Below are positions 1-6,393 of a stretch of 6,393 nucleotides of DNA, in pieces. Every line of letters begins with the position of its first letter. The first letter of the stretch is position 1. Position numbers and translations under genes: made by a program. This stretch comes from a virus. The DNA is taken from IMG/VR virus record IMGVR_UViG_3300029445_000308, positions 1 to 6,393 of that record; one strand, given 5' to 3'. The notes under the pieces are model-generated. The model ran no database searches and had not been told where the DNA came from. It saw only the letters and a program-made list of their open reading frames with translations.

Positions 1-123
1 ACTAGCCCTTGTGGTATGGAATGGTTACCCCTCAACCATTGTCATCTTTGATGACCGACTTCAAAGGTACTATCCTTATATGTCGCCAATTTCAGCAAAA
101 AAGAGTAATATTTTTGCGTGATG
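1..123. repeat. Terminal redundancy of the window: bases 1-123 are identical to 6271-6393. The replicon is circular with a 6270-nt unit and has been read 123 nt past the junction
   Basis: Direct comparison shows actagcccttgtggtatgga...tttttgcgtgatg at both ends of the window. Confidence 0.9.
20..55. repeat. Two adjacent short hairpins: aatggtt-acccctc-aaccatt (20-40) and gtcatc-ttt-gatgac (41-55)
   Basis: Perfect 7-bp and 6-bp inverted repeats seen directly. They belong to the hairpin-dense non-coding block that spans the circular junction. Confidence 0.4.
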
Positions 124-146
124 TGCGAAAAAATTTTTCGCTTTTT
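95..146 (+). terminator. Two A/T-rich palindromic hairpins: gcaaaaa-N9-tttttgc (95-117) and gcgaaaaa-a-tttttcgc followed by a T-run (125-146). The second resembles an intrinsic terminator
   Basis: Inverted repeats seen directly, and the second stem is followed by ctttttg. The GC content of the stems is low, so terminator strength is uncertain. Confidence 0.3.
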
Positions 147-170
147 GTTAACACTAATTAATACAAAAAA

Positions 171-223
171 CTTGCCTTTATCAAAAAATATAGATTACTT
201 TTGTAATATAAAAAAAGAGGAGG
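171..223 (+). promoter_or_regulatory. Candidate Bacteroidota-type promoter (-33-like cTTG at 171-174, -7 TActTTTG at 196-203) followed by a strong Shine-Dalgarno AGAGGAGG (216-223) 5 nt upstream of the ATG at 229
   Basis: The -7 element matches the TAnnTTTG consensus described for Bacteroides sigma-A promoters, with about 21 nt spacing to a TTG-like -33 element. AGGAGG with a 5-nt spacer is an ideal SD. No other gene start in this window has an SD. Confidence 0.3.
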
Positions 224-228
224 TATAT

Positions 229-429
229 ATGAAAAGAAAAAGCTATGCACGTGACCACATCACACTCCGTTTGACTTTTGAGGAGGTTTCTGTCTTGTCC
301 GTTCAGATTTTGTCTCAAATTTCAGAGGACCGATGTACTTTGGAGCAATCTCTAACTCCTGTTTTACGTCGGATTGTTGAACATCGAGCAGAAGTCTTGC
401 AAAGATTGTATGATATCATCAAGTCTTAG
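229..429 (+). CDS. Small hypothetical protein (67 aa; the alternative GTG/ATG start at 118/121 gives 103 aa). Possible ribbon-helix-helix or MobC-like DNA-binding protein
   Basis: ORF with a perfect SD and a TAG stop at 427-429. The N-terminus is basic (MKRKSYAR), then a predicted beta strand HITLRLTF, then two amphipathic helices (EEVSVLSVQILSQ and TLEQSLTPVLRRIVEHRAEVLQRLYDII). This is the beta-alpha-alpha pattern of RHH repressors. The fold assignment is inferred and has not been checked against homologs. Confidence 0.45.
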   Translation: MKRKSYARDHITLRLTFEEVSVLSVQILSQISEDRCTLEQSLTPVLRRIVEHRAEVLQRLYDIIKS

Positions 430-441
430 CAATTTTCAGAG

Positions 442-475
442 TATAGGACGGCACTACCGAGTGTGCCGTTCTATA
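442..475. repeat. Strong GC-rich hairpin: 13-bp stem (tataggacggcac / gtgccgttctata, one G.T) with an 8-nt loop, immediately after the stop of ORF 229-429
   Basis: Inverted repeat seen directly. No T-run follows, so it is not a canonical intrinsic terminator. Confidence 0.5.
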
Positions 476-558
476 CGCCACGACACAAGACGCGGACCAA
501 AGGGACGCCCTGCATCAACATCAAAAACGTGACTTTTTTTGAATAGAAAAAAGGACAC

Positions 559-582
559 AAAAATCGGTCAATCCCGATTTTT
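559..582 (+). terminator. Hairpin aaaaatcgg-tcaatc-ccgattttt, with the A-run and T-run forming the stem flanks. Resembles a bidirectional terminator
   Basis: Perfect 9-bp inverted repeat with a 6-nt loop, seen directly. Confidence 0.3.
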
Positions 583-585
583 CCG

Positions 586-622
586 CTGCACCTTGTGTGC
601 AGATAGGGCGATACTTCGCCCT
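586..622. repeat. Two tandem 6-bp GC hairpins (ctgcac-cttgt-gtgcag at 586-602 and agggcg-atactt-cgccct at 605-622) about 35 nt upstream of the Rep start. The motif CGCCCTGCA(A)TC occurs twice (506-516 and 617-628)
   Basis: Inverted and direct repeats seen directly. A role as Rep-binding iterons or promoter-region structure is inferred. Confidence 0.4.
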
Positions 623-656
623 GCAATCTAACATTTCATCCTAATATTTCAAGTGT

Positions 657-2009
657 ATGTGTACAAACCCTTTGACTATCAAAAATAATCGTTTAGATTA
701 CCGTGCCGACTTGCATGCACGTCTACTCACTGTGCCCTGTGGTTGTTGCGCCGAATGTATAGATATCAAACGTAATGAGATACAAATTAGAGCTATGTAT
801 GAGGCACGCCGTGAGTGCTGGACACATCATGTCATGTTGCTTTTTACGTATGACGATTCACATGTTCCGTATTTGTATTATCATCATGACCACATCATGT
901 GCCATGATATGAAACATATTTCTCTCATGATTGATATATTGCGTAGACTCTACGGAAAGGAACACTTTTGGTATATGATTGGTGCTGAGTATGGTATAGA
1001 TTTGTTATATACACAACGCCCTCATTATCATGGTCTTTTTGGTCTTGATGATACTATTGATTATCGTGAATTTTGTGAAACTTGTCGTAAAATTTGGACT
1101 GGTCAAAATTATTGTCGAGATGAAAAACAGGACTTTCGTACGCCCTTCGGTAACCTTGGCTTCATGTTCCCTGCACCAGACGAACCGTCTACAAAGTTTC
1201 TCTGTCGTGACGAGCAGAAAAGCGCTGCCTATTGTGCAAAATATTGTTGTAAACAGCTTGGTTTTATCGAAAAGAATTTGGTAAAACAGCTTAAAAAATA
1301 TGACGTTCCAAAGTGTGATTATCGTGACTCAATTCCTCGTATGATTGCCACTCGAGGTTTCGGTATAGATGCCATTCTTTCTGATTCTCATACAAATATT
1401 GTGGATTGTACTTGTTATAATTATCTATGGCAGAAGACAGTATCTTTGCCTACTGCTTGTGTTGAACGTATTCGGTATCATCGTAAAGCTTATAAACGTG
1501 TACCCCTTCGTGATAATAATGGAGTACAACGTAAGACAAAAAAAGGTGTCCCAATGACACGTTTGGTATATGACCGTCTCAAGACTAATCTCGGTGAGAA
1601 ACAGCAGATGGTAATGCTTGACTCTGCTATTAAACATCGCTATGAACTTTACAAAGCTTTAAAATGTGATGATAAGACAGCATATCGGCTTTCTATATAT
1701 CACTATGTTTATAAACATCTTCCGGCAACCATAATACCTTCATTTGGTATTAATGATAGTAATGTCTACACACCCGACATGTACCGTAAGGTATATTACA
1801 AGACACGTGTCGAGCAATTCCTTCATTCTAAGCCTAATCGTAGCTGTGATGTGCAATATTTCACAATGGATTTATGGCTCGGTATAGATTTCACACTATA
1901 TGATTCTCTCAATGAGAAATTGACTAAAGAAAAGTTAAACACGCTCGAGAAACGTTTAAATAATATGAATAATTCTGATAAATATCGTCAATTTCAGAAC
2001 CCGCATTGA
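657..2009 (+). CDS. Rolling-circle replication initiator protein (Microviridae VP4 / gene A-like, HUH endonuclease superfamily), 450 aa
   Basis: Motif 1 is LLFTYDD (nt 837-857). Motif 2 is the HUH sequence HYHGLFG (nt 1023-1043). Motif 3 is YCAKYCCK (nt 1230-1253), a two-tyrosine uYuxKYuxK motif like YVAKYVNK in the phiX174 A protein. The N-terminal Cys cluster PCGCCAEC resembles the CxxC region of gokushovirus VP4. The start codon has no SD. Confidence 0.9.
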   Translation: MCTNPLTIKNNRLDYRADLHARLLTVPCGCCAECIDIKRNEIQIRAMYEARRECWTHHVMLLFTYDDSHVPYLYYHHDHIMCHDMKHISLMIDILRRLYGKEHFWYMIGAEYGIDLLYTQRPHYHGLFGLDDTIDYREFCETCRKIWTGQNYCRDEKQDFRTPFGNLGFMFPAPDEPSTKFLCRDEQKSAAYCAKYCCKQLGFIEKNLVKQLKKYDVPKCDYRDSIPRMIATRGFGIDAILSDSHTNIVDCTCYNYLWQKTVSLPTACVERIRYHRKAYKRVPLRDNNGVQRKTKKGVPMTRLVYDRLKTNLGEKQQMVMLDSAIKHRYELYKALKCDDKTAYRLSIYHYVYKHLPATIIPSFGINDSNVYTPDMYRKVYYKTRVEQFLHSKPNRSCDVQYFTMDLWLGIDFTLYDSLNEKLTKEKLNTLEKRLNNMNNSDKYRQFQNPH

Positions 2010-2029
2010 TATTTTATATATATTTGCGG
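2001..2029 (+). other. Candidate (+)-strand rolling-circle origin: a 5-bp stem ccgca/tgcgg around a 19-nt AT-rich loop TTGATATTTTATATATATT, overlapping the Rep stop codon
   Basis: The loop begins with TTGATATT, which matches the phiX174 origin core CAACTTG/ATATTAATAAC, where gene A protein nicks between G and A. The stem-loop context is typical of HUH Rep origins. A similar TTGATATATT also occurs inside rep at 931-940. Confidence 0.35.
2019..2026 (+). promoter_or_regulatory. Candidate Bacteroidota -7 promoter element TAtaTTTG about 20 nt upstream of the start of the lipoprotein ORF
   Basis: Matches the TAnnTTTG consensus. No clean TTTG -33 element is present (TTTc at 1992-1995). Confidence 0.25.
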
Positions 2030-2047
2030 TATTATTAATTAATCTCT

Positions 2048-2236
2048 ATGCTTATGAATATTAAAACAAAATGGATTTTAGGTCTAATTGCCTTTCATTT
2101 ATTAATTTCTACTTACATTCTTTCGTCCTGCTCCGCTGCACAATCCTTCATGGATTCTAAAGGACACACTACTATTGTCACCACAGACACGACTCATGTG
2201 CAACATGGTGGTATTGTTTCAATCAAAATCAAGTGA
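2048..2236 (+). CDS. Small predicted lipoprotein (62 aa, alternative start at 2054). It has a signal peptide with a lipobox (ILSSC), and the mature part is about 34 aa
   Basis: N-region MLMNIKTK, hydrophobic core WILGLIAFHLLISTYIL, lipobox L-S-S-C. The ORF sits in its own slot between rep and the next gene with no out-of-frame overlap. Its TGA stop (2234-2236) lies 1 nt before the next ATG (2238), which suggests translational coupling. Confidence 0.55.
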   Translation: MLMNIKTKWILGLIAFHLLISTYILSSCSAAQSFMDSKGHTTIVTTDTTHVQHGGIVSIKIK

Positions 2237-2237
2237 T

Positions 2238-2525
2238 ATGCACTTACAACGTGTTTTTACTTTGGCTCATGACCAAACTTCTTCAAAAAAGATTGTGGAG
2301 AAAGAAAAACGCAATGTCAACAATTTATGTGTCGTTGTTGATGTCGACCCTTGTGAATTGACACCTATTATGGACCGTTCTTTATGGAGTGTTGAAGTAA
2401 TGATGAAGAACCCTTCAATGGCTGTACCTCTGAATCCTTCGGTTCTTGATTCTCCTGACTTTGTAAAAGTAGATGCTATTGAAAAAATCTTAAAAGCTCA
2501 AGAAAATGAAAGTACAAGTAAATAA
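2238..2525 (+). CDS. Hypothetical protein, 95 aa, mildly acidic. Possibly an internal scaffolding or other assembly protein. A TTG start at 2175 would give 116 aa but would overlap the lipoprotein ORF
   Basis: It is ORF-coupled to the upstream gene (TGAtATG) and overlaps the VP1 start by 20 nt. It lies between rep and the major capsid gene, where phiX174 carries its scaffold and J genes. I recognise no motif, so the function is inferred from position only. Confidence 0.5.
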   Translation: MHLQRVFTLAHDQTSSKKIVEKEKRNVNNLCVVVDVDPCELTPIMDRSLWSVEVMMKNPSMAVPLNPSVLDSPDFVKVDAIEKILKAQENESTSK

Positions 2526-4758
2526 ATCTAATTCTCGCAGTTACGCACACAATTATCGTATCACTAATTCAACTACATGTGATTTTGGTTTCGTTCAACC
2601 GCTTTTCATGCGCCAACTGTTCAACTCTTCTACTAAAGGTAAGGTATCTATAAAAGGTACCCTTGGCCAGTTCATGCGTCTTGCTCCGATGCCTTTTCCA
2701 ACTTTTGGTGAGGTCAAGTTGGATACATTGGCTGTTGGCGTGCCCATTGAGCAGGTTTTTCCTGCTTGGGCTTCATTTATGTCTGGTAAGGATTATCAGT
2801 ACGGTTCTGAAGCTGCATATTATCCAACGTATTTACCTTCGACTACTAATGCAGTACTAACTCTAGAGTTGTACAATTTATTTGGAATTCAGAAATTTTA
2901 TGTCAATGATAATGACTCTCAGCCTCGCAGTGCTCCCTCTGCCTTGTCTTCATCCTCAAGTCTTGATGATGATGTTCTTTTAGAACTTTCAAATGTATCT
3001 CTTTTGCCTTTTGACGTTCTCGAATCTGAATGTCGTAAGGTATATGATACCAATGACCATACATTACCGTCCACTTACGTAGTTTTTAAATATAAGGATG
3101 GTGATATTTCTATTTCTATCCCTACATTGACAATCTTCTTTGATTATTTCGATGGAAAGATTTCAAAGTCCTATGTCATGCAGTTGCTAGGTTATACTGA
3201 GACTACCTCTAAGGTAGCTTCTCTTGCTCAGTCTGAATCACAGCTTAATGAAGCTTTGTCTTATCTTAATTCAGCTGATTATGTTCATTTTAGTGTAGGT
3301 GGTTTTACTACTTATAAATTATCCGATAAAGGTCGTGCTTTGCGCAAGGTTTTAGTCGGTCTTGGGTATAATCTCTCTATGGATGATACTACGTCTGTTT
3401 CTATTCTTCCGCTCCTCGCTTGTTATAAGGCCTATTTTGATAATTTTTACCCTAATCGTGGTATTGATTGGCAGGCTACAGTATGTGTATCTTTAATTAA
3501 TGTCATTCAGCGTAAAAACATCTTCGATGTGTACTCTGACCCTGTTTCTCGGCCTATTTTTGAAAGGTTCTTGACTGAGGAATTGTCCTCGATGTACAGC
3601 ACTCATGCAATGGATTTCATTTCATTGCACACAAACAATGTATCAAATGGAAATAATCCGTTTAAGGAAAATATCGGTATTCCTAATAGCTATGAAACAG
3701 CCATGTCTTGGCAGCAGGAAGCTTCATATAAACCTAATGCTTCAGGTGAAAATCTTCATAACTCTGCTGTGTCTGAAGGTTTAGCTGGAGCCCATCCTAT
3801 CATTCCGAAAGATAGAGATATCACATCATGGTCTATTCAGTTTGTTTTGGCTTTGCAAAAGTATGTCAATAAGGATTCGATTATCGGGAACCGTGTTAAA
3901 ACATGGCTTAAGTCTCATCTCAATCAAGATGTTTTCAATAGTCTGTATAATACTACCGATTTTGTGTCCCGTAATAGTATTGACGTACAAATCGGTGATA
4001 TTGACAGTAATGCATCTACCGATACAGCCGAGCTTGGCTCTTATGCTGGTAAAGGTATTGCTAAAGGAAATGGTTTGTCCTTTTTCTATGAATGCTCTAC
4101 AGCTTCGATATTTTTTATCTTTGCATATATTTCGCCAACTACTGGGTATTATCAAGGTACAGACGCCACTTTGTGTATGGTAGATAAGTGGAGTATGCCG
4201 TCTTCTGAGTTTGACGCTTTGGGATATGAATTGACACCACGTTCGGTAATGTTTACAGACAATGGCATATCATGTATTGATGCCATACCTTCAAATCAGA
4301 ACTTTAATAAAAACATGTATGTATGTTCTAATCATGACGGATTTGGATTCATGCCTCGTGGTTCGGTTTGGAAGTATGCTAAAAACATAGTAAATGGTGA
4401 TATGTCCCTTCGCTCTAAGCGTAATACATATAAATCCTTTTATCTTGACCGTGAGTTGATTTTGCGGTATGCCGTCATAGAAAATAAACTAGGTTCTACG
4501 GATAAAACGATTCATGTAAAATTGAATCGATGTCCTCTGGCTTCTTCTGCCTGGCAATACATTAGTCGGTACGACTACCTGAGCAATTACAACCGCATAT
4601 TTTATAATAGCGGTAATGAGAATTTGCAGATAAACTATATCGACGATAATTTCATTCTTCATAATGTAATAGACTTCACTGAAGTCAATAGCCTAAAACC
4701 GCTCTCAATTTCGTATGATGTTGAAGACGGTGCCCCAATGGATATTGAAAAAGCTTAG
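2506..4758 (+). CDS. Major capsid protein (Microviridae VP1 / F-like), 750 aa
   Basis: Largest ORF, lying between the rep/small-gene module and the pilot-protein gene. The N-terminal region (SNSRSYAHNYRI...FGFVQPLFMRQLF...GTLGQFMRLAPMPFPTFGEVKLD) has the basic-then-beta-rich character of microvirus VP1 N-termini. A length of about 750 aa is typical of Alpavirinae-like capsids, against about 550 aa in gokushoviruses. TAG stop at 4756-4758. Confidence 0.8.
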   Translation: MKVQVNKSNSRSYAHNYRITNSTTCDFGFVQPLFMRQLFNSSTKGKVSIKGTLGQFMRLAPMPFPTFGEVKLDTLAVGVPIEQVFPAWASFMSGKDYQYGSEAAYYPTYLPSTTNAVLTLELYNLFGIQKFYVNDNDSQPRSAPSALSSSSSLDDDVLLELSNVSLLPFDVLESECRKVYDTNDHTLPSTYVVFKYKDGDISISIPTLTIFFDYFDGKISKSYVMQLLGYTETTSKVASLAQSESQLNEALSYLNSADYVHFSVGGFTTYKLSDKGRALRKVLVGLGYNLSMDDTTSVSILPLLACYKAYFDNFYPNRGIDWQATVCVSLINVIQRKNIFDVYSDPVSRPIFERFLTEELSSMYSTHAMDFISLHTNNVSNGNNPFKENIGIPNSYETAMSWQQEASYKPNASGENLHNSAVSEGLAGAHPIIPKDRDITSWSIQFVLALQKYVNKDSIIGNRVKTWLKSHLNQDVFNSLYNTTDFVSRNSIDVQIGDIDSNASTDTAELGSYAGKGIAKGNGLSFFYECSTASIFFIFAYISPTTGYYQGTDATLCMVDKWSMPSSEFDALGYELTPRSVMFTDNGISCIDAIPSNQNFNKNMYVCSNHDGFGFMPRGSVWKYAKNIVNGDMSLRSKRNTYKSFYLDRELILRYAVIENKLGSTDKTIHVKLNRCPLASSAWQYISRYDYLSNYNRIFYNSGNENLQINYIDDNFILHNVIDFTEVNSLKPLSISYDVEDGAPMDIEKA

Positions 4759-4770
4759 TATATCACAAGA

Positions 4771-4807
4771 GTAGGTACATTTGTTTGTGCCTACCCTTGT
4801 TTTTTTT
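4771..4807 (+). terminator. Rho-independent-type terminator after VP1: gtaggtaca-tttgtt-tgtgcctac (9-bp stem, one G.T) followed by cc and then a TTGTTTTTTTT run
   Basis: Inverted repeat plus a T-run seen directly, 13 nt after the VP1 stop. Confidence 0.6.
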
Positions 4808-4828
4808 AACAACTAAAAAAATACATAT

Positions 4829-5956
4829 ATGGGATTTTTTGATAAATTCGGTGGCGCCATTATAAATGGATTTGGTGCTCTTGCAGGTACTGCCACTTCA
4901 GCAATAAATTCTGCTGCTAATCGTAGATTTATGCAGCAGCAGCAAAAAAGAGAGTTTGAACAACAAAATGCAATGTATGATAAACAGCGTAAGGACGCTT
5001 TGTCGGATTACGCCACCCAGCGTCAAGACTATGTAAATGATTTGTTGATGTCGCGCTCTCGTGACGTTCAAGCATTACAAAATGCTGGACTTTCTACCGC
5101 TTTAGCTGGTGAGCAGTCCGTTGGCGGAAATGCTTTAGGCTCCGCCGTACAACAATCTTCTTTTGCTTCTCCAAATAGTGTCGCTTCTTCGCAGCCTTAT
5201 GACATTCAGGCTCCAAACATGATGTTTACTGCACAACTCGCTAATCTTATTGCAGATACTAATAAAAAGGATGCCGAAGCTAATAAGACAAAGACTGAAG
5301 CCGAACGAGCACAAGCCGAGTTCGTGAATTGGCGTGATGTTCAGAAGGATGTCATTAATGACACAATGAAAGCAGCTCTCACTAAGATAAATTCGGAAAA
5401 GAATTCAGCCTGGTTTAAAGCTGCACAAGATGCCAATCAGTATTCATTTGATATGCAAGAAGTTGATGAAATGGACGAAAATGGAAAGCCAACAGGTAAG
5501 AAGATTTTCCGCTATGAGCAAAATTTGCGTAATTCTATGAAGCAGTTGCAATTGCAAGTCGATACAATGACCTTCAATTATAATAAGGCTAAGGATTTCA
5601 AGCCTTGGGAGTTGAAGCAATTGCAGGAGACTATCAATCAGATTACAGCTAATGTAGCCTTACTTAAAGATAAGGACGAGCAACAGAAGATTTTAAATAT
5701 GTTCAATCGTGCAGGAATTGGCATTGGTCATGGTTTGATTGATTCTCTTGCCGCCTTGCTCTATTCTGATAAAGGTAATGAACTTGCTACACGTGCGGTA
5801 TCTACTTTGACGGATTTTGTAAAAGGTATTTTTACAAGTATGTTCAAGCTTGTAAAAGGAGAAGGTGTTTCTTCTGGTCCTTTTGGTGGAGAAGTTTCTG
5901 GCACACCAACACACTTGGTTGACCCTAGAGCACACGGTGCCACCTCTTCATGGTAA
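4829..5956 (+). CDS. Minor capsid / DNA pilot protein (Microviridae VP2 / H-like), 375 aa
   Basis: Gly/Ala-rich N-terminus (MGFFDKFGGAIINGFGALAGTATSAINSAA), then a poly-Q stretch (QQQQKREFEQQ) and long Q/A/K/E-rich segments predicted to be helical or coiled-coil, then a Gly-rich C-terminus (GEGVSSGPFGGEVSGT). It lies immediately downstream of VP1, as in Microviridae. The start context is A-rich with no SD. Confidence 0.7.
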   Translation: MGFFDKFGGAIINGFGALAGTATSAINSAANRRFMQQQQKREFEQQNAMYDKQRKDALSDYATQRQDYVNDLLMSRSRDVQALQNAGLSTALAGEQSVGGNALGSAVQQSSFASPNSVASSQPYDIQAPNMMFTAQLANLIADTNKKDAEANKTKTEAERAQAEFVNWRDVQKDVINDTMKAALTKINSEKNSAWFKAAQDANQYSFDMQEVDEMDENGKPTGKKIFRYEQNLRNSMKQLQLQVDTMTFNYNKAKDFKPWELKQLQETINQITANVALLKDKDEQQKILNMFNRAGIGIGHGLIDSLAALLYSDKGNELATRAVSTLTDFVKGIFTSMFKLVKGEGVSSGPFGGEVSGTPTHLVDPRAHGATSSW

Positions 5957-5957
5957 T

Positions 5958-5999
5958 ATGTGCGCGCGTGCGTGCGTTTTCGCGTGCGTGCGTGCGCAT
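5958..5999. repeat. Alternating purine/pyrimidine tract atgtgcgcgcgtgcgtgcg-TTTT-cgcgtgcgtgcgtgcgcat: two 19-nt perfect Pu/Py alternating blocks (GC/GT dinucleotides) separated by TTTT. Classic Z-DNA-forming sequence
   Basis: Seen directly. Every position in 5958-5976 and in 5981-5999 alternates R/Y. It sits 2 nt after the VP2 stop in an otherwise AT-rich genome. Confidence 0.8.
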
Positions 6000-6027
6000 T
6001 TTTATCTTACAGGTAAAAGCGTAGCGT

Positions 6028-6055
6028 TTCTTTTTTCTTCGAAGAAAAAAAAGAA
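6028..6055. repeat. A/T-rich near-perfect palindrome tttcttttttcttc|gaagaaaaaaaagaaa centred on TTCGAA (10 bp perfect, extendable with a 2-nt bulge)
   Basis: Seen directly. 6031-6040 is the exact reverse complement of 6041-6050. Confidence 0.7.
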
Positions 6056-6124
6056 TTTACCATACGTTTTATATCCACGAACACATCGAACCATAGCAAA
6101 TGAAAAGAAAATCAGTGAAACGGT

Positions 6125-6265
6125 GCTTTTTAGGCGACTGGTCGCCGGTGCGGAGCAAAAAAGCAGATTTTCACATATACGTTTGTCGGAACACTCCGGA
6201 GCCTTGGCGTCGTCGGTCGCTCGAGGCTTCGGTGACTCTGCCTTCATTCCGTTCAGCGAACGGAG
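6125..6265. other. GC-rich cluster of hairpins. (a) 6125-6164: outer stem gcttttt/aaaaagc enclosing ggcga-ctgg-tcgcc. (b) 6187-6198: cgga-acac-tccg. (c) 6196-6232: ccggagcc...ggcttcgg, 8 bp with one G.T. (d) 6247-6265: ttccgttc-agc-gaacggag. Candidate complementary-strand origin or priming site, or a structured RNA
   Basis: Inverted repeats seen directly. Local GC content is far above the genome average, and no credible ORF is present. In phiX174 and G4, intergenic hairpin clusters serve as primosome-assembly or primase-recognition sites for (-)-strand synthesis. The function here is inferred. Confidence 0.3.
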
Positions 6266-6393
6266 CATATACTAGCCCTTGTGGTATGGAATGGTTACCC
6301 CTCAACCATTGTCATCTTTGATGACCGACTTCAAAGGTACTATCCTTATATGTCGCCAATTTCAGCAAAAAAGAGTAATATTTTTGCGTGATG

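Follow-up and report, generated by a model that had tools for sequence, protein, structure and literature searches.

A Conserved Small Lipoprotein Gene of Gut Microviruses as a Candidate Lysis Factor in Bacteroidota

Colicin release lipoproteins (BRPs) bring about lysis or quasi-lysis from a single gene without a muralytic enzyme, and their cleaved signal peptide contributes to the effect. Together with the single-gene lysis (Sgl) proteins, they appear by analogy to be the nearest functional counterparts of the gene described here, an open reading frame (ORF) of 62 amino acids (aa) between rep and the capsid module of a microvirus genome, IMG/VR record IMGVR_UViG_3300029445_000308, positions 1 to 6,393 (this whole stretch of 6,393 nt is referred to as the window). 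Other small phage lipoproteins, Llp of T5 and Cor, face the periplasm and bind a host outer-membrane protein. The lysis mechanism of microviruses other than phiX174 is unknown (PMC3394797). It was proposed that M15 peptidases are endolysins in some gokushoviruses and alpaviruses (PMC3394797, PMC9239249), and the statement in a first-pass annotation of the window that the lysis mechanisms of these groups are essentially unknown was therefore too broad. A microvirus isolate on B. fragilis H1, phiHBP1, carries an M15 peptidase (PMC13064476), and surveys name only peptidases and methyltransferases as accessory genes of microviruses (PMC9239249).

We found that the ORF belongs to a large family of predicted lipoproteins (referred to as FAM). 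FAM is the best current candidate for the agent of host lysis by abundant gut microviruses of Bacteroidota; its function is not proven. The best reading of the sequence comparisons is that FAM may be the lysis effector of these phages, and we give this reading slightly less than even confidence. If an accessory role is counted in, some part in lysis is mildly probable. The first-pass annotation had offered lysis and superinfection exclusion as alternatives, and the comparative evidence leans to lysis.

The 62-aa translation quoted for positions 2048 to 2236 of the plus strand matched exactly, and no other gene overlaps the ORF. Six close homologues, with 84 to 100% identity, occupy the same Rep-X-p95-VP1 slot in contigs of 5.8 to 6.8 kb. 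Pairwise ratios of nonsynonymous to synonymous divergence (dN/dS) over the whole ORF were 0.06 to 0.28, while in the mature domain the corresponding polymorphism ratio (pN/pS) was 0.11 and the variable sites were distributed 6/0/23 over the three codon positions. The Cys of the lipobox was invariant in 56 family representatives despite a mean column identity of 22%. The gene is real and conserved, has a lipoprotein architecture and is under purifying selection. Non-conservation or disruption in relatives, which the first-pass annotation had named as grounds for abandoning its proposal, was not seen, since homologues were intact in every close relative.

Profile searches returned 53 proteins of 52 to 94 aa from 1.84 billion representatives and 3,003 clusters at an E value of ≤0.001 from a 5.8-billion-protein set; FAM holds at least 3,003 protein clusters, with lengths of 52 to 124 aa. 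The source names were "hypothetical protein [Microviridae sp.]" only, plus one UniRef "Lipoprotein" of Dulem virus 267. In the alignment of the 56 representatives, C28, G39, D47, and H53 were invariant and S27, T48, and T49 were at least 90% conserved. The family signature consists of a basic N terminus, a hydrophobic helix of 20 to 25 residues, the box x-[ST]-S-C and, about 10 residues further, the hairpin motif G-[KRH]-T-T-I-V-T-x-D-T-T-x-[VI]-x-H-x-G. Ser is found at position -1 in 90% of the members, and acidic residues are rare after the Cys.

The window protein gave nothing above the cutoff in Pfam, PHROGs, and NCBIfam. The FAM profile, searched against PDB sequences at E values up to 10, gave five chance matches only (antibody light chains and LGR4). 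Foldseek found no match at an E value of ≤0.001 in PDB and BFVD, a result that says little because a helix plus a hairpin is too small to be informative. In the literature we found no paper pairing microviruses with a lipobox and no relevant paper pairing Alpavirinae with a lipoprotein; relative to the literature searched, FAM is a new family.

The n-region of the window protein contains two Lys residues (K4 and K6 in the 60-aa numbering) and is followed by a hydrophobic stretch of 17 residues (W9 to L25) and the box I-L-S-S-C. These features agree with a lipoprotein rule of the PROSITE PS51257 type, which asks for K or R in the first 7 residues, six uncharged positions before the box, the pattern [LIVMFWSTAG](2)-[LIVMFYSTAGCQ]-[AGS]-C and the Cys at position 15 to 35. 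The rule was also followed by 295 of the 313 family members tested (Ser at -1 in 265 of the 295). The signal of the signal peptidase II type that had been noticed at first sight, with its basic n-region, 17-residue core, and lipobox, was thus borne out as a sequence prediction. The mature peptide, first put at about 34 aa, has 35 residues counting the Cys.

Since the first ATG (2048) is not conserved (relative L052 has ACG there, and L015 has lost it) and the second ATG (2054) is invariant and is the one from which gene callers begin (P0001, 60 aa), the product is most likely a 60-aa protein (MNIKTKW...). The 62-aa reading frame stands, but its true start is probably ATG 2054 and not ATG 2048. 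The rep stop and the ORF are 29 nt apart, and the spacer includes TATATTTG, which matches TAnnTTTG, the Bacteroides -7 promoter consensus. TAnnTTTG has 17 matches in the window versus 7.6 expected, and 2 of 200 shuffles reached 17; the plus-strand matches lie in the intergenic DNA ahead of the lipoprotein gene, ahead of the gene at 4829, and in the 5' noncoding region. The block TTTTATATATATTTGC around the motif was invariant in the six relatives. By its match, 2019 to 2026 is a candidate Bacteroidota-type promoter for the lipoprotein gene.

Surface-exposed Bacteroidota lipoproteins have lipoprotein export signal (LES) motifs, with acidic residues in the first positions after the Cys. The window protein has C-S-A-A-Q-S at this place and so lacks such a surface-export signal, and D or E is missing at +2 to +6 in 249 of the 295 rule-passing members. 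Because of this missing acidic signal, a periplasm-facing location is predicted. AlphaFold2, run on the family alignment, predicted a helix at residues 5 to 32 and a hairpin at 35-44/48-57, with a mean pLDDT confidence score of 80 and an average of 89 for block 41 to 50. In this model, G39 would pair with H53, and one face of the hairpin (G39, T41, I43, T49, V51, and H53) would bear the conserved residues. Lipidation and periplasmic topology, like the target and lysis itself, are what we infer from such comparisons.

The observation that the phage has no recognizable lysis gene was upheld: none was found in PHROG and Pfam scans, in a scan of accessory ORFs, or in a hydrolase search. The window phage has no muralytic enzyme and no holin, as is asked of a phage with a single-gene lysis protein, and FAM is its sole product with a membrane-targeting signal. 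No accessory ORF with a hydrolase domain was found in FAM-positive genomes, and jackhmmer searches with four microviral hydrolases (M15 peptidases and the lysozyme-like protein of L038) matched none of the 51 FAM-positive loci, which include 33 microvirus loci of at least 5.5 kb. None of nine hydrolase-bearing microviruses carried FAM or a lipobox ORF of any other kind. These nine include phiHBP1, in which Peptidase_M15_3 was matched at an E value of 4e-17.

In OR148990, with the gene order Rep, 79-aa protein, M15 peptidase, p90, and VP1, the peptidase occupies the FAM slot; its VP1 has 36% identity to the window VP1 over the main aligned segment. Two microviruses, L042 and L044, have five genes only, encoding Rep, a scaffold-like protein, VP1, VP2, and FAM. 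FAM was also found in phi29-like podoviruses of about 11 to 11.5 kb that encode DNA_pol_B_2, Podovirus_Gp16, a connector, and Phi29_MCP. Between their ATPase and connector genes these phages have a gene of 64 to 68 aa that PHROGs identifies as a holin (E values of 5e-9 and 3e-10), and in L012 FAM sits in this slot. In the complete genome L053, which has neither the holin nor DUF5675, FAM is the only small membrane protein and lies in the slot behind the major capsid protein (MCP) gene; the same slot holds DUF5675 in L030 and L054. On this comparative evidence, FAM seems to behave as an alternative lysis module. The identity of one FAM protein (P0056) in prophages with different Rep and VP1 proteins, together with the sharing of FAM with tailed phages, argues for a target independent of the virion's receptor.

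FAM is not specific to microviruses and is common to ssDNA and dsDNA phages. Since microviral gene uptake was described as limited to peptidases and methyltransferases (PMC9239249), this sharing is notable. The podovirus group (L030, L031, L032, L033, L053, L054, and L012) comes from gut metagenomes and has very small genomes with all genes on one strand and a protein-primed PolB. Its lysis content varies among holin plus DUF5675 plus FAM, holin plus FAM, and FAM only. The DUF5675 motif H-S-G...G-C-I-L is reminiscent of YkuD-type L,D-transpeptidases; no PDB or PHROG function backs the likeness.

Among microviruses, FAM was found in free gut phages from human, pig, dog, lemur, chicken, and macaque. 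A single FAM query matched 39 GenBank records, in most of which the ORF is unannotated. We analyzed the 30 GenBank records whose VP1 is nearest to that of the window: 23 have a full FAM, 3 have a mini form (32 to 34 aa) or a variant lipobox ORF in the same place, 2 have an M15 peptidase instead, and 2 are partial and were not assessed. Homologous small lipoprotein ORFs thus do occupy the same slot in relatives, both in the close ones and in 23 of the 30 nearest VP1 records. The gene order is either Rep-FAM-p9x-VP1 or noncoding region-FAM-(small genes)-Rep. In IMG/VR, VP1-based scans gave no or few relatives, and only four family loci were found. A hairpin-pattern scan of 185,579 species genomes gave a single match, a misbinned podovirus contig; the pattern was too narrow and overlooked the P0056 prophages.

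FAM also occurs in microvirus prophages within Bacteroidota chromosomes (L055 to L058), flanked by SusC/SusD pairs or by leu genes plus yidC. The VP1 of the SusC/SusD-flanked prophage has 32% identity to the window VP1 over 768 aa. Because of these integrated prophages, the host phylum of the group is settled as Bacteroidota, and the promoter motif and the similarity to smalltalk peptides (see below) also point to a Bacteroidota host. P0056, a 67-aa FAM protein, was found 100% identical, together with an upstream 68-aa ORF, in prophages whose Rep, scaffold-like, and VP1 genes differ, at two chromosomal sites (the SusC/SusD locus and leuB-TPR/DUF3078). The occurrence of identical P0056 beside differing Rep and VP1 genes and at different sites points to module exchange between microviruses.

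Mini versions of 30 to 34 aa have a signal peptide and a lipobox and end just four residues later (for example, MESKSIKQLIVNIIVAILSAIVTFLTSCTFNL). Their genes lie directly 5' of rep in microviruses without another FAM and without a hydrolase. In L047 (MG945337), the N terminus of these mini versions is joined to an unrelated mature part of 43 residues.

Several points weigh against FAM as the lysis effector. The complementary distribution of FAM and hydrolases is confounded by ancestry and by sampling, the latter because FAM-positive loci were fetched via FAM and hydrolase-positive loci via the hydrolase, and only the pair OR148990/OR149010 falls within the nearest VP1 group. FAM is carried by prophages in Bacteroidota chromosomes, where a constitutively expressed lysis gene would do harm and an exclusion gene would be of advantage. 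Podoviruses L030, L054, and L032 have FAM alongside a holin and in the early left-end region. The FAM-negative microvirus L037 shows neither a hydrolase nor a lipoprotein; unrecognized lysis genes therefore exist and could hide in FAM-positive genomes. Since the mini forms of 32 to 34 aa lack the hairpin, the conserved hairpin is not the whole mechanism everywhere, and these forms hint that the membrane segment has an activity of its own. Finally, synonymous variability in rep shows mild dips at 1017 to 1121 and 1287 to 1451, over the starts of embedded hydrophobic ORFs in the +1 frame. These ORFs are probably compositional, and an E-like gene in the window's own lineage is a weaker rival.

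The main rival is that FAM is a superinfection-exclusion or receptor-masking lipoprotein like T5 Llp or Cor and that lysis is brought about by something else. The lipid-anchored hairpin would then attach, from within the periplasm, to an outer-membrane receptor or to a component of DNA entry, so that further infection is blocked and progeny are not inactivated on cell debris. We regard this as unlikely, although the size and architecture of FAM fit the known exclusion lipoproteins, and a conserved hairpin face implies a specific binding partner. Its position as the first gene after the noncoding region in many microviruses, as an early-region gene in holin-bearing podoviruses, and beside SusC/SusD transporters in Bacteroidota prophages would suit exclusion as well. 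However, exclusion genes are normally sporadic accessories, whereas FAM is near universal in its clade and is kept in five-gene genomes. Exclusion does not predict complementarity with peptidoglycan hydrolases or slot swaps with hydrolase and holin genes. A receptor-specific blocker should track the receptor-binding protein, but one motif serves microviruses with VP1 proteins only about 30% identical plus tailed podoviruses, and identical FAM proteins accompany different VP1 proteins. In addition, Pfam, PHROGs, and NCBIfam scans showed no similarity to exclusion families.

It is improbable that FAM has only an accessory role in lysis (holin-like, in timing, or outer-membrane-disrupting in the manner of a spanin or disruptin), the lethal step being left to a host autolysin or to an E-like gene embedded in the +1 frame of rep. 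L030 and L054, in which FAM stands alongside a holin and DUF5675, are consistent with such a role, as is the relation of the N terminus to smalltalk peptides that accompany M15 peptidases, but in L053 FAM is the sole small membrane protein, and there is neither an i-spanin partner nor a C-terminal membrane segment. The hydrophobic +1-frame ORFs of rep (1030 to 1284 and 1369 to 1557) are mostly intact in close relatives, and the rep synonymous variability dips there to 0.12 to 0.15 versus a mean of 0.23. Against this, such ORFs were present in every genome examined and are probably explained by composition; they lie at varying positions (0.09 to 0.87 of rep) and keep no common site when the wider clade is compared, and ORF 1369 is interrupted in L050. 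An E-like embedded gene was rejected on these grounds, less firmly so for the window's own lineage.

A different host-interaction role, in envelope remodeling, lysogenic conversion, or antidefense (for example, vesiculation, nutrient transporters, or a periplasmic defense sensor), is very improbable: prophage carriage, a transfer across viral realms that is typical of moron-like genes, and the lack of homology to anything of known function would fit it, but a dispensable moron is not expected to be near universal in very small genomes and complementary to hydrolases. That the ORF arose by chance in AT-rich intergenic DNA and has no function, as its shortness and mostly missing annotation in GenBank records might suggest, is ruled out by the dN/dS and pN/pS values, the codon-position bias of 6/0/23, the at least 3,003 homologous clusters, and the invariant Cys, Gly, Asp, and His.

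The lysis reading is further supported by the N terminus of FAM, which in some members reaches the cutoff of the 29-position NCBIfam smalltalk model NF033879 (24.7 bits): MG945906 scored 31.8 bits, P0035 31.4 bits, and P0027 25.1 bits. The Pfam model PF20096 (DUF6486; cutoff, 22.7 bits) was matched by 7 of the 56 representatives, with a best E value of 4e-8. The window protein itself did not match the smalltalk and DUF6486 models at E values up to 1. In MT150091 (L061), the coding sequence of a smalltalk peptide of 30 aa (27.3 bits) shares 4 nt (ATGA) with the end of an M15 peptidase gene, the arrangement expected of a holin-endolysin pair. Tiny membrane peptides also lie beside a hydrolase in L038 (2716 to 2805) and L043 (5745 to 5840). 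Because tiny membrane peptides adjoin hydrolases and one overlaps the M15 gene, we suggest that smalltalk/DUF6486 peptides are mini-holins. A gene named smalltalk is present in B. thetaiotaomicron (PMC10434189). For the smalltalk-type N terminus, tblastn against plasmids gave nothing, and a padded profile search gave phage family members and no bacterial smalltalk genes.

If FAM is the lysis effector, its gene would be transcribed from the Bacteroidota-type promoter directly upstream, and the long hydrophobic N terminus of the product would enter the inner membrane by Sec export. The invariant Cys would be lipidated and the signal peptide removed by signal peptidase II, leaving a lipid-anchored beta-hairpin of 35 residues on the periplasmic side. 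The conserved hairpin face might bind a conserved component of the Bacteroidota envelope, most plausibly one that takes part in peptidoglycan synthesis or controls a host autolysin. Although the phage encodes no muralytic enzyme, the wall would then fail, much as it does under phiX174 E and the other single-gene lysis proteins. The smalltalk-related membrane segment may contribute a holin-like lesion of its own, which would parallel the colicin release proteins, whose stable signal peptide is itself active. We propose, tentatively and with less confidence than we place in a lysis effector as such, that FAM is the first lipoprotein-type single-gene lysis factor and the main lysis system of Bacteroidota gut microviruses. 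It may have been born as a smalltalk mini-holin that gained a lipobox and a hairpin, and it may have spread between ssDNA microviruses and phi29-like podoviruses, replacing holin/endolysin cassettes. Its conserved hairpin may point to a weak spot in the Bacteroidota envelope that can be reached from the periplasm and is so far unexploited.

The coordinates are collected in Table 1. The first and last 123 nt of the window (1 to 123 and 6271 to 6393) are identical, and because of this terminal redundancy the window represents a complete circular microvirus genome of 6,270 nt, with all genes on the plus strand. Its context (a Phage_F capsid, Rep, a circular genome of about 6 kb, and chromosomally integrated relatives) places it in the Bacteroidota-associated (Alpavirinae-type) group of Microviridae, a placement at the level of the group and not a formal assignment to Alpavirinae or "Family 5." No DNA near-identical to the window was found in GenBank phages.

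The TGAtATG junction to the next gene, taken earlier as a sign of tight packing and apparent translational coupling, was found as described (stop TGA at 2234 to 2236 and next ATG at 2238 to 2240), and a tight junction before the p9x gene (TGAtATG, TAAtATG, ATGA overlap, or TAActATG) is kept in all Rep-FAM-p9x-VP1 lineages. The 95-aa protein is acidic, has no hydrophobic segment and matched no family in PHROGs and Pfam scans of the window proteins; Pfam also had no family for the same-slot proteins of L040, L042, and L044. Its place in the genome and its composition suggest an internal scaffolding or VP3/VP5-type protein. GenBank calls a homologous 88-aa acidic protein 5' of VP1 "similar to peptidase" (L036, 2033 to 2299; L039, 2393 to 2659).

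The start of the 103-aa ORF listed from 118 is probably an internal ATG (MKRKSYARDHITLRL..., 66 aa; window 229 to 429), ahead of which a TAnnTTTG motif lies at 196 to 203, and the corresponding place in L007 and L052 is occupied by a gene of 66 aa. The long noncoding region (5957 to 6270 plus 1 to 656) has 92 to 96% identity among close relatives and seems more conserved than the synonymous sites of the lipoprotein gene (dS, 0.28 to 0.85). It may hold an origin, promoters, or an attachment site, and the ORFs listed in it on both strands (for example, 5865 to 6275, 6002 to 6268, and 6100 to 6321) are probably not genes. Rfam and tRNA scans of the window found nothing. In L050 this region has an insertion of about 650 nt with three additional small ORFs.

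Table 1. Features of the window and of related records discussed in the text
Record	Feature	Position	Strand	Remarks
Window	ORF of 66 to 103 aa	ends at 429	+	first gene of the window
Window	Rep	657-2009	+	phrog_942
Window	Putative -7 promoter element TATATTTG	2019..2026	+	matches TAnnTTTG; 28 nt 5' of the probable start codon
Window	ORF under study (62 aa plus stop)	2048-2236	+	between Rep and the 95-aa gene
Window	Probable start and signal peptide (MNIKTKWILGLIAFHLLISTYILSS)	2054..2128	+	ATG conservation, gene caller, AlphaFold2 helix 5-32
Window	Lipobox L-S-S-C	2120..2131	+	Cys codon 2129-2131; residue 28 (62-aa numbering) or 26 (60-aa numbering)
Window	Predicted mature lipopeptide, 35 residues (CSAAQSFMDSKGHTTIVTTDTTHVQHGGIVSIKIK)	2129..2233	+	pN/pS 0.11; processing inferred
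Window	Predicted beta-hairpin with family signature G39...D47-T-T...H53	2150..2218	+	strands 35-44 and 48-57, turn T-T-D (AlphaFold2)
Window	95-aa acidic protein gene	2238-2525	+	begins 1 nt past the ORF stop; overlaps VP1 start (2506)
Window	VP1	2506-4758	+	Phage_F
Window	Pilot-like gene, 375 aa	4829-5956	+	last gene of the window
MT150091 (L061)	M15 peptidase gene	647-1141
MT150091 (L061)	Smalltalk peptide	1138-1230
L046	Mini-FAM	4308-4406
L049	Mini-FAM	5810-5914		wraps origin
P0306-P0309, P0316	Mini-FAM

Microviruses rank with the most abundant phages in the gut of humans and animals, and the present work supplies a concrete candidate lysis gene in most members of a large gut clade, mostly unannotated in GenBank. 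The long-open question of lysis by microviruses other than phiX174 becomes open to simple experiments. The work also ties the FAM group to Bacteroidota through integrated prophages, documents gene flow between ssDNA and dsDNA phages, and gives a first functional lead for the Bacteroidota smalltalk/DUF6486 peptides, including the one coupled to an M15 endolysin. Should FAM prove to be a lysis effector, whatever it targets would offer a new "protein antibiotic" site in Bacteroidota, and FAM could be used as a tool for controlled lysis of gut anaerobes. Should it serve exclusion instead, FAM would be a common factor in the competition between gut phages.

Of the curated models, only smalltalk and DUF6486 touch FAM, and only in its signal-peptide part. 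The 29- to 31-residue Bacteroidota peptides of the smalltalk model NF033879 and DUF6486 correspond to several FAM N termini over the whole model, lipobox included, but they end where the FAM mature domain starts, and the peptidase-coupled peptide of L061 has no Cys. YgdI and YgdR (DUF903) are, like FAM, small lipoproteins with a beta-rich mature part, and weak profile matches to them were found in 21 of the 56 representatives (best E value, 4.4e-4). Homology was rejected, as the window protein scored 15 bits and the best family member 20 bits against NF033216, versus a cutoff of 42 bits, and the match was mostly signal peptide and lipobox. A sequence-profile search of PDB returned no small lipoprotein.

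Llp and Cor are sporadic accessories of large tailed phages, whereas FAM is near universal in genomes of five to seven genes. PHROGs, Pfam, NCBIfam, PDB sequences, and Foldseek showed no similarity in sequence or fold between them and FAM, which is compatible with an analogous function. The o-spanins (Rz1) and u-spanins are also small phage lipoproteins in lysis. Unlike spanin systems, microviruses with FAM have no endolysin or holin that we could find, and FAM is not a spanin because it lacks both a C-terminal transmembrane segment and an i-spanin partner, whether adjacent or embedded.

BRPs resemble FAM in having a tiny precursor (about 45 to 60 aa) with a signal peptidase II lipobox and a mature part of about 28 to 35 residues. 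They are Enterobacteriaceae plasmid genes acting via OmpLA, whereas FAM is a Bacteroidota phage gene with a conserved beta-hairpin. The CloDF13 BRP sequence used for comparison was matched at ≥99% identity in 92 plasmid records annotated "colicin release lysis protein." Homology to BRPs, suggested by an alignment by eye (C-x-A-x-[YF]-[IM]-x-D-x-x-G-x-T), was rejected, since the FAM profile reached only 6 bits against CloDF13 BRP, in the signal peptide only. Lysis_col was absent among the Pfam matches listed for the window protein and for the family (25 of 50 families for the latter).

No Sgl protein is known to be a lipoprotein. The E protein of phiX174 is an N-in transmembrane protein overprinted in gene D, whereas FAM has a separate gene of its own between rep and the capsid module and a lipobox, and its conserved domain is predicted to lie in the periplasm. 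Like the FAM phages, phages with E or an Sgl protein have a small genome without an endolysin and with one small membrane-targeted protein, and the logic proposed for both is to block or derail wall synthesis.

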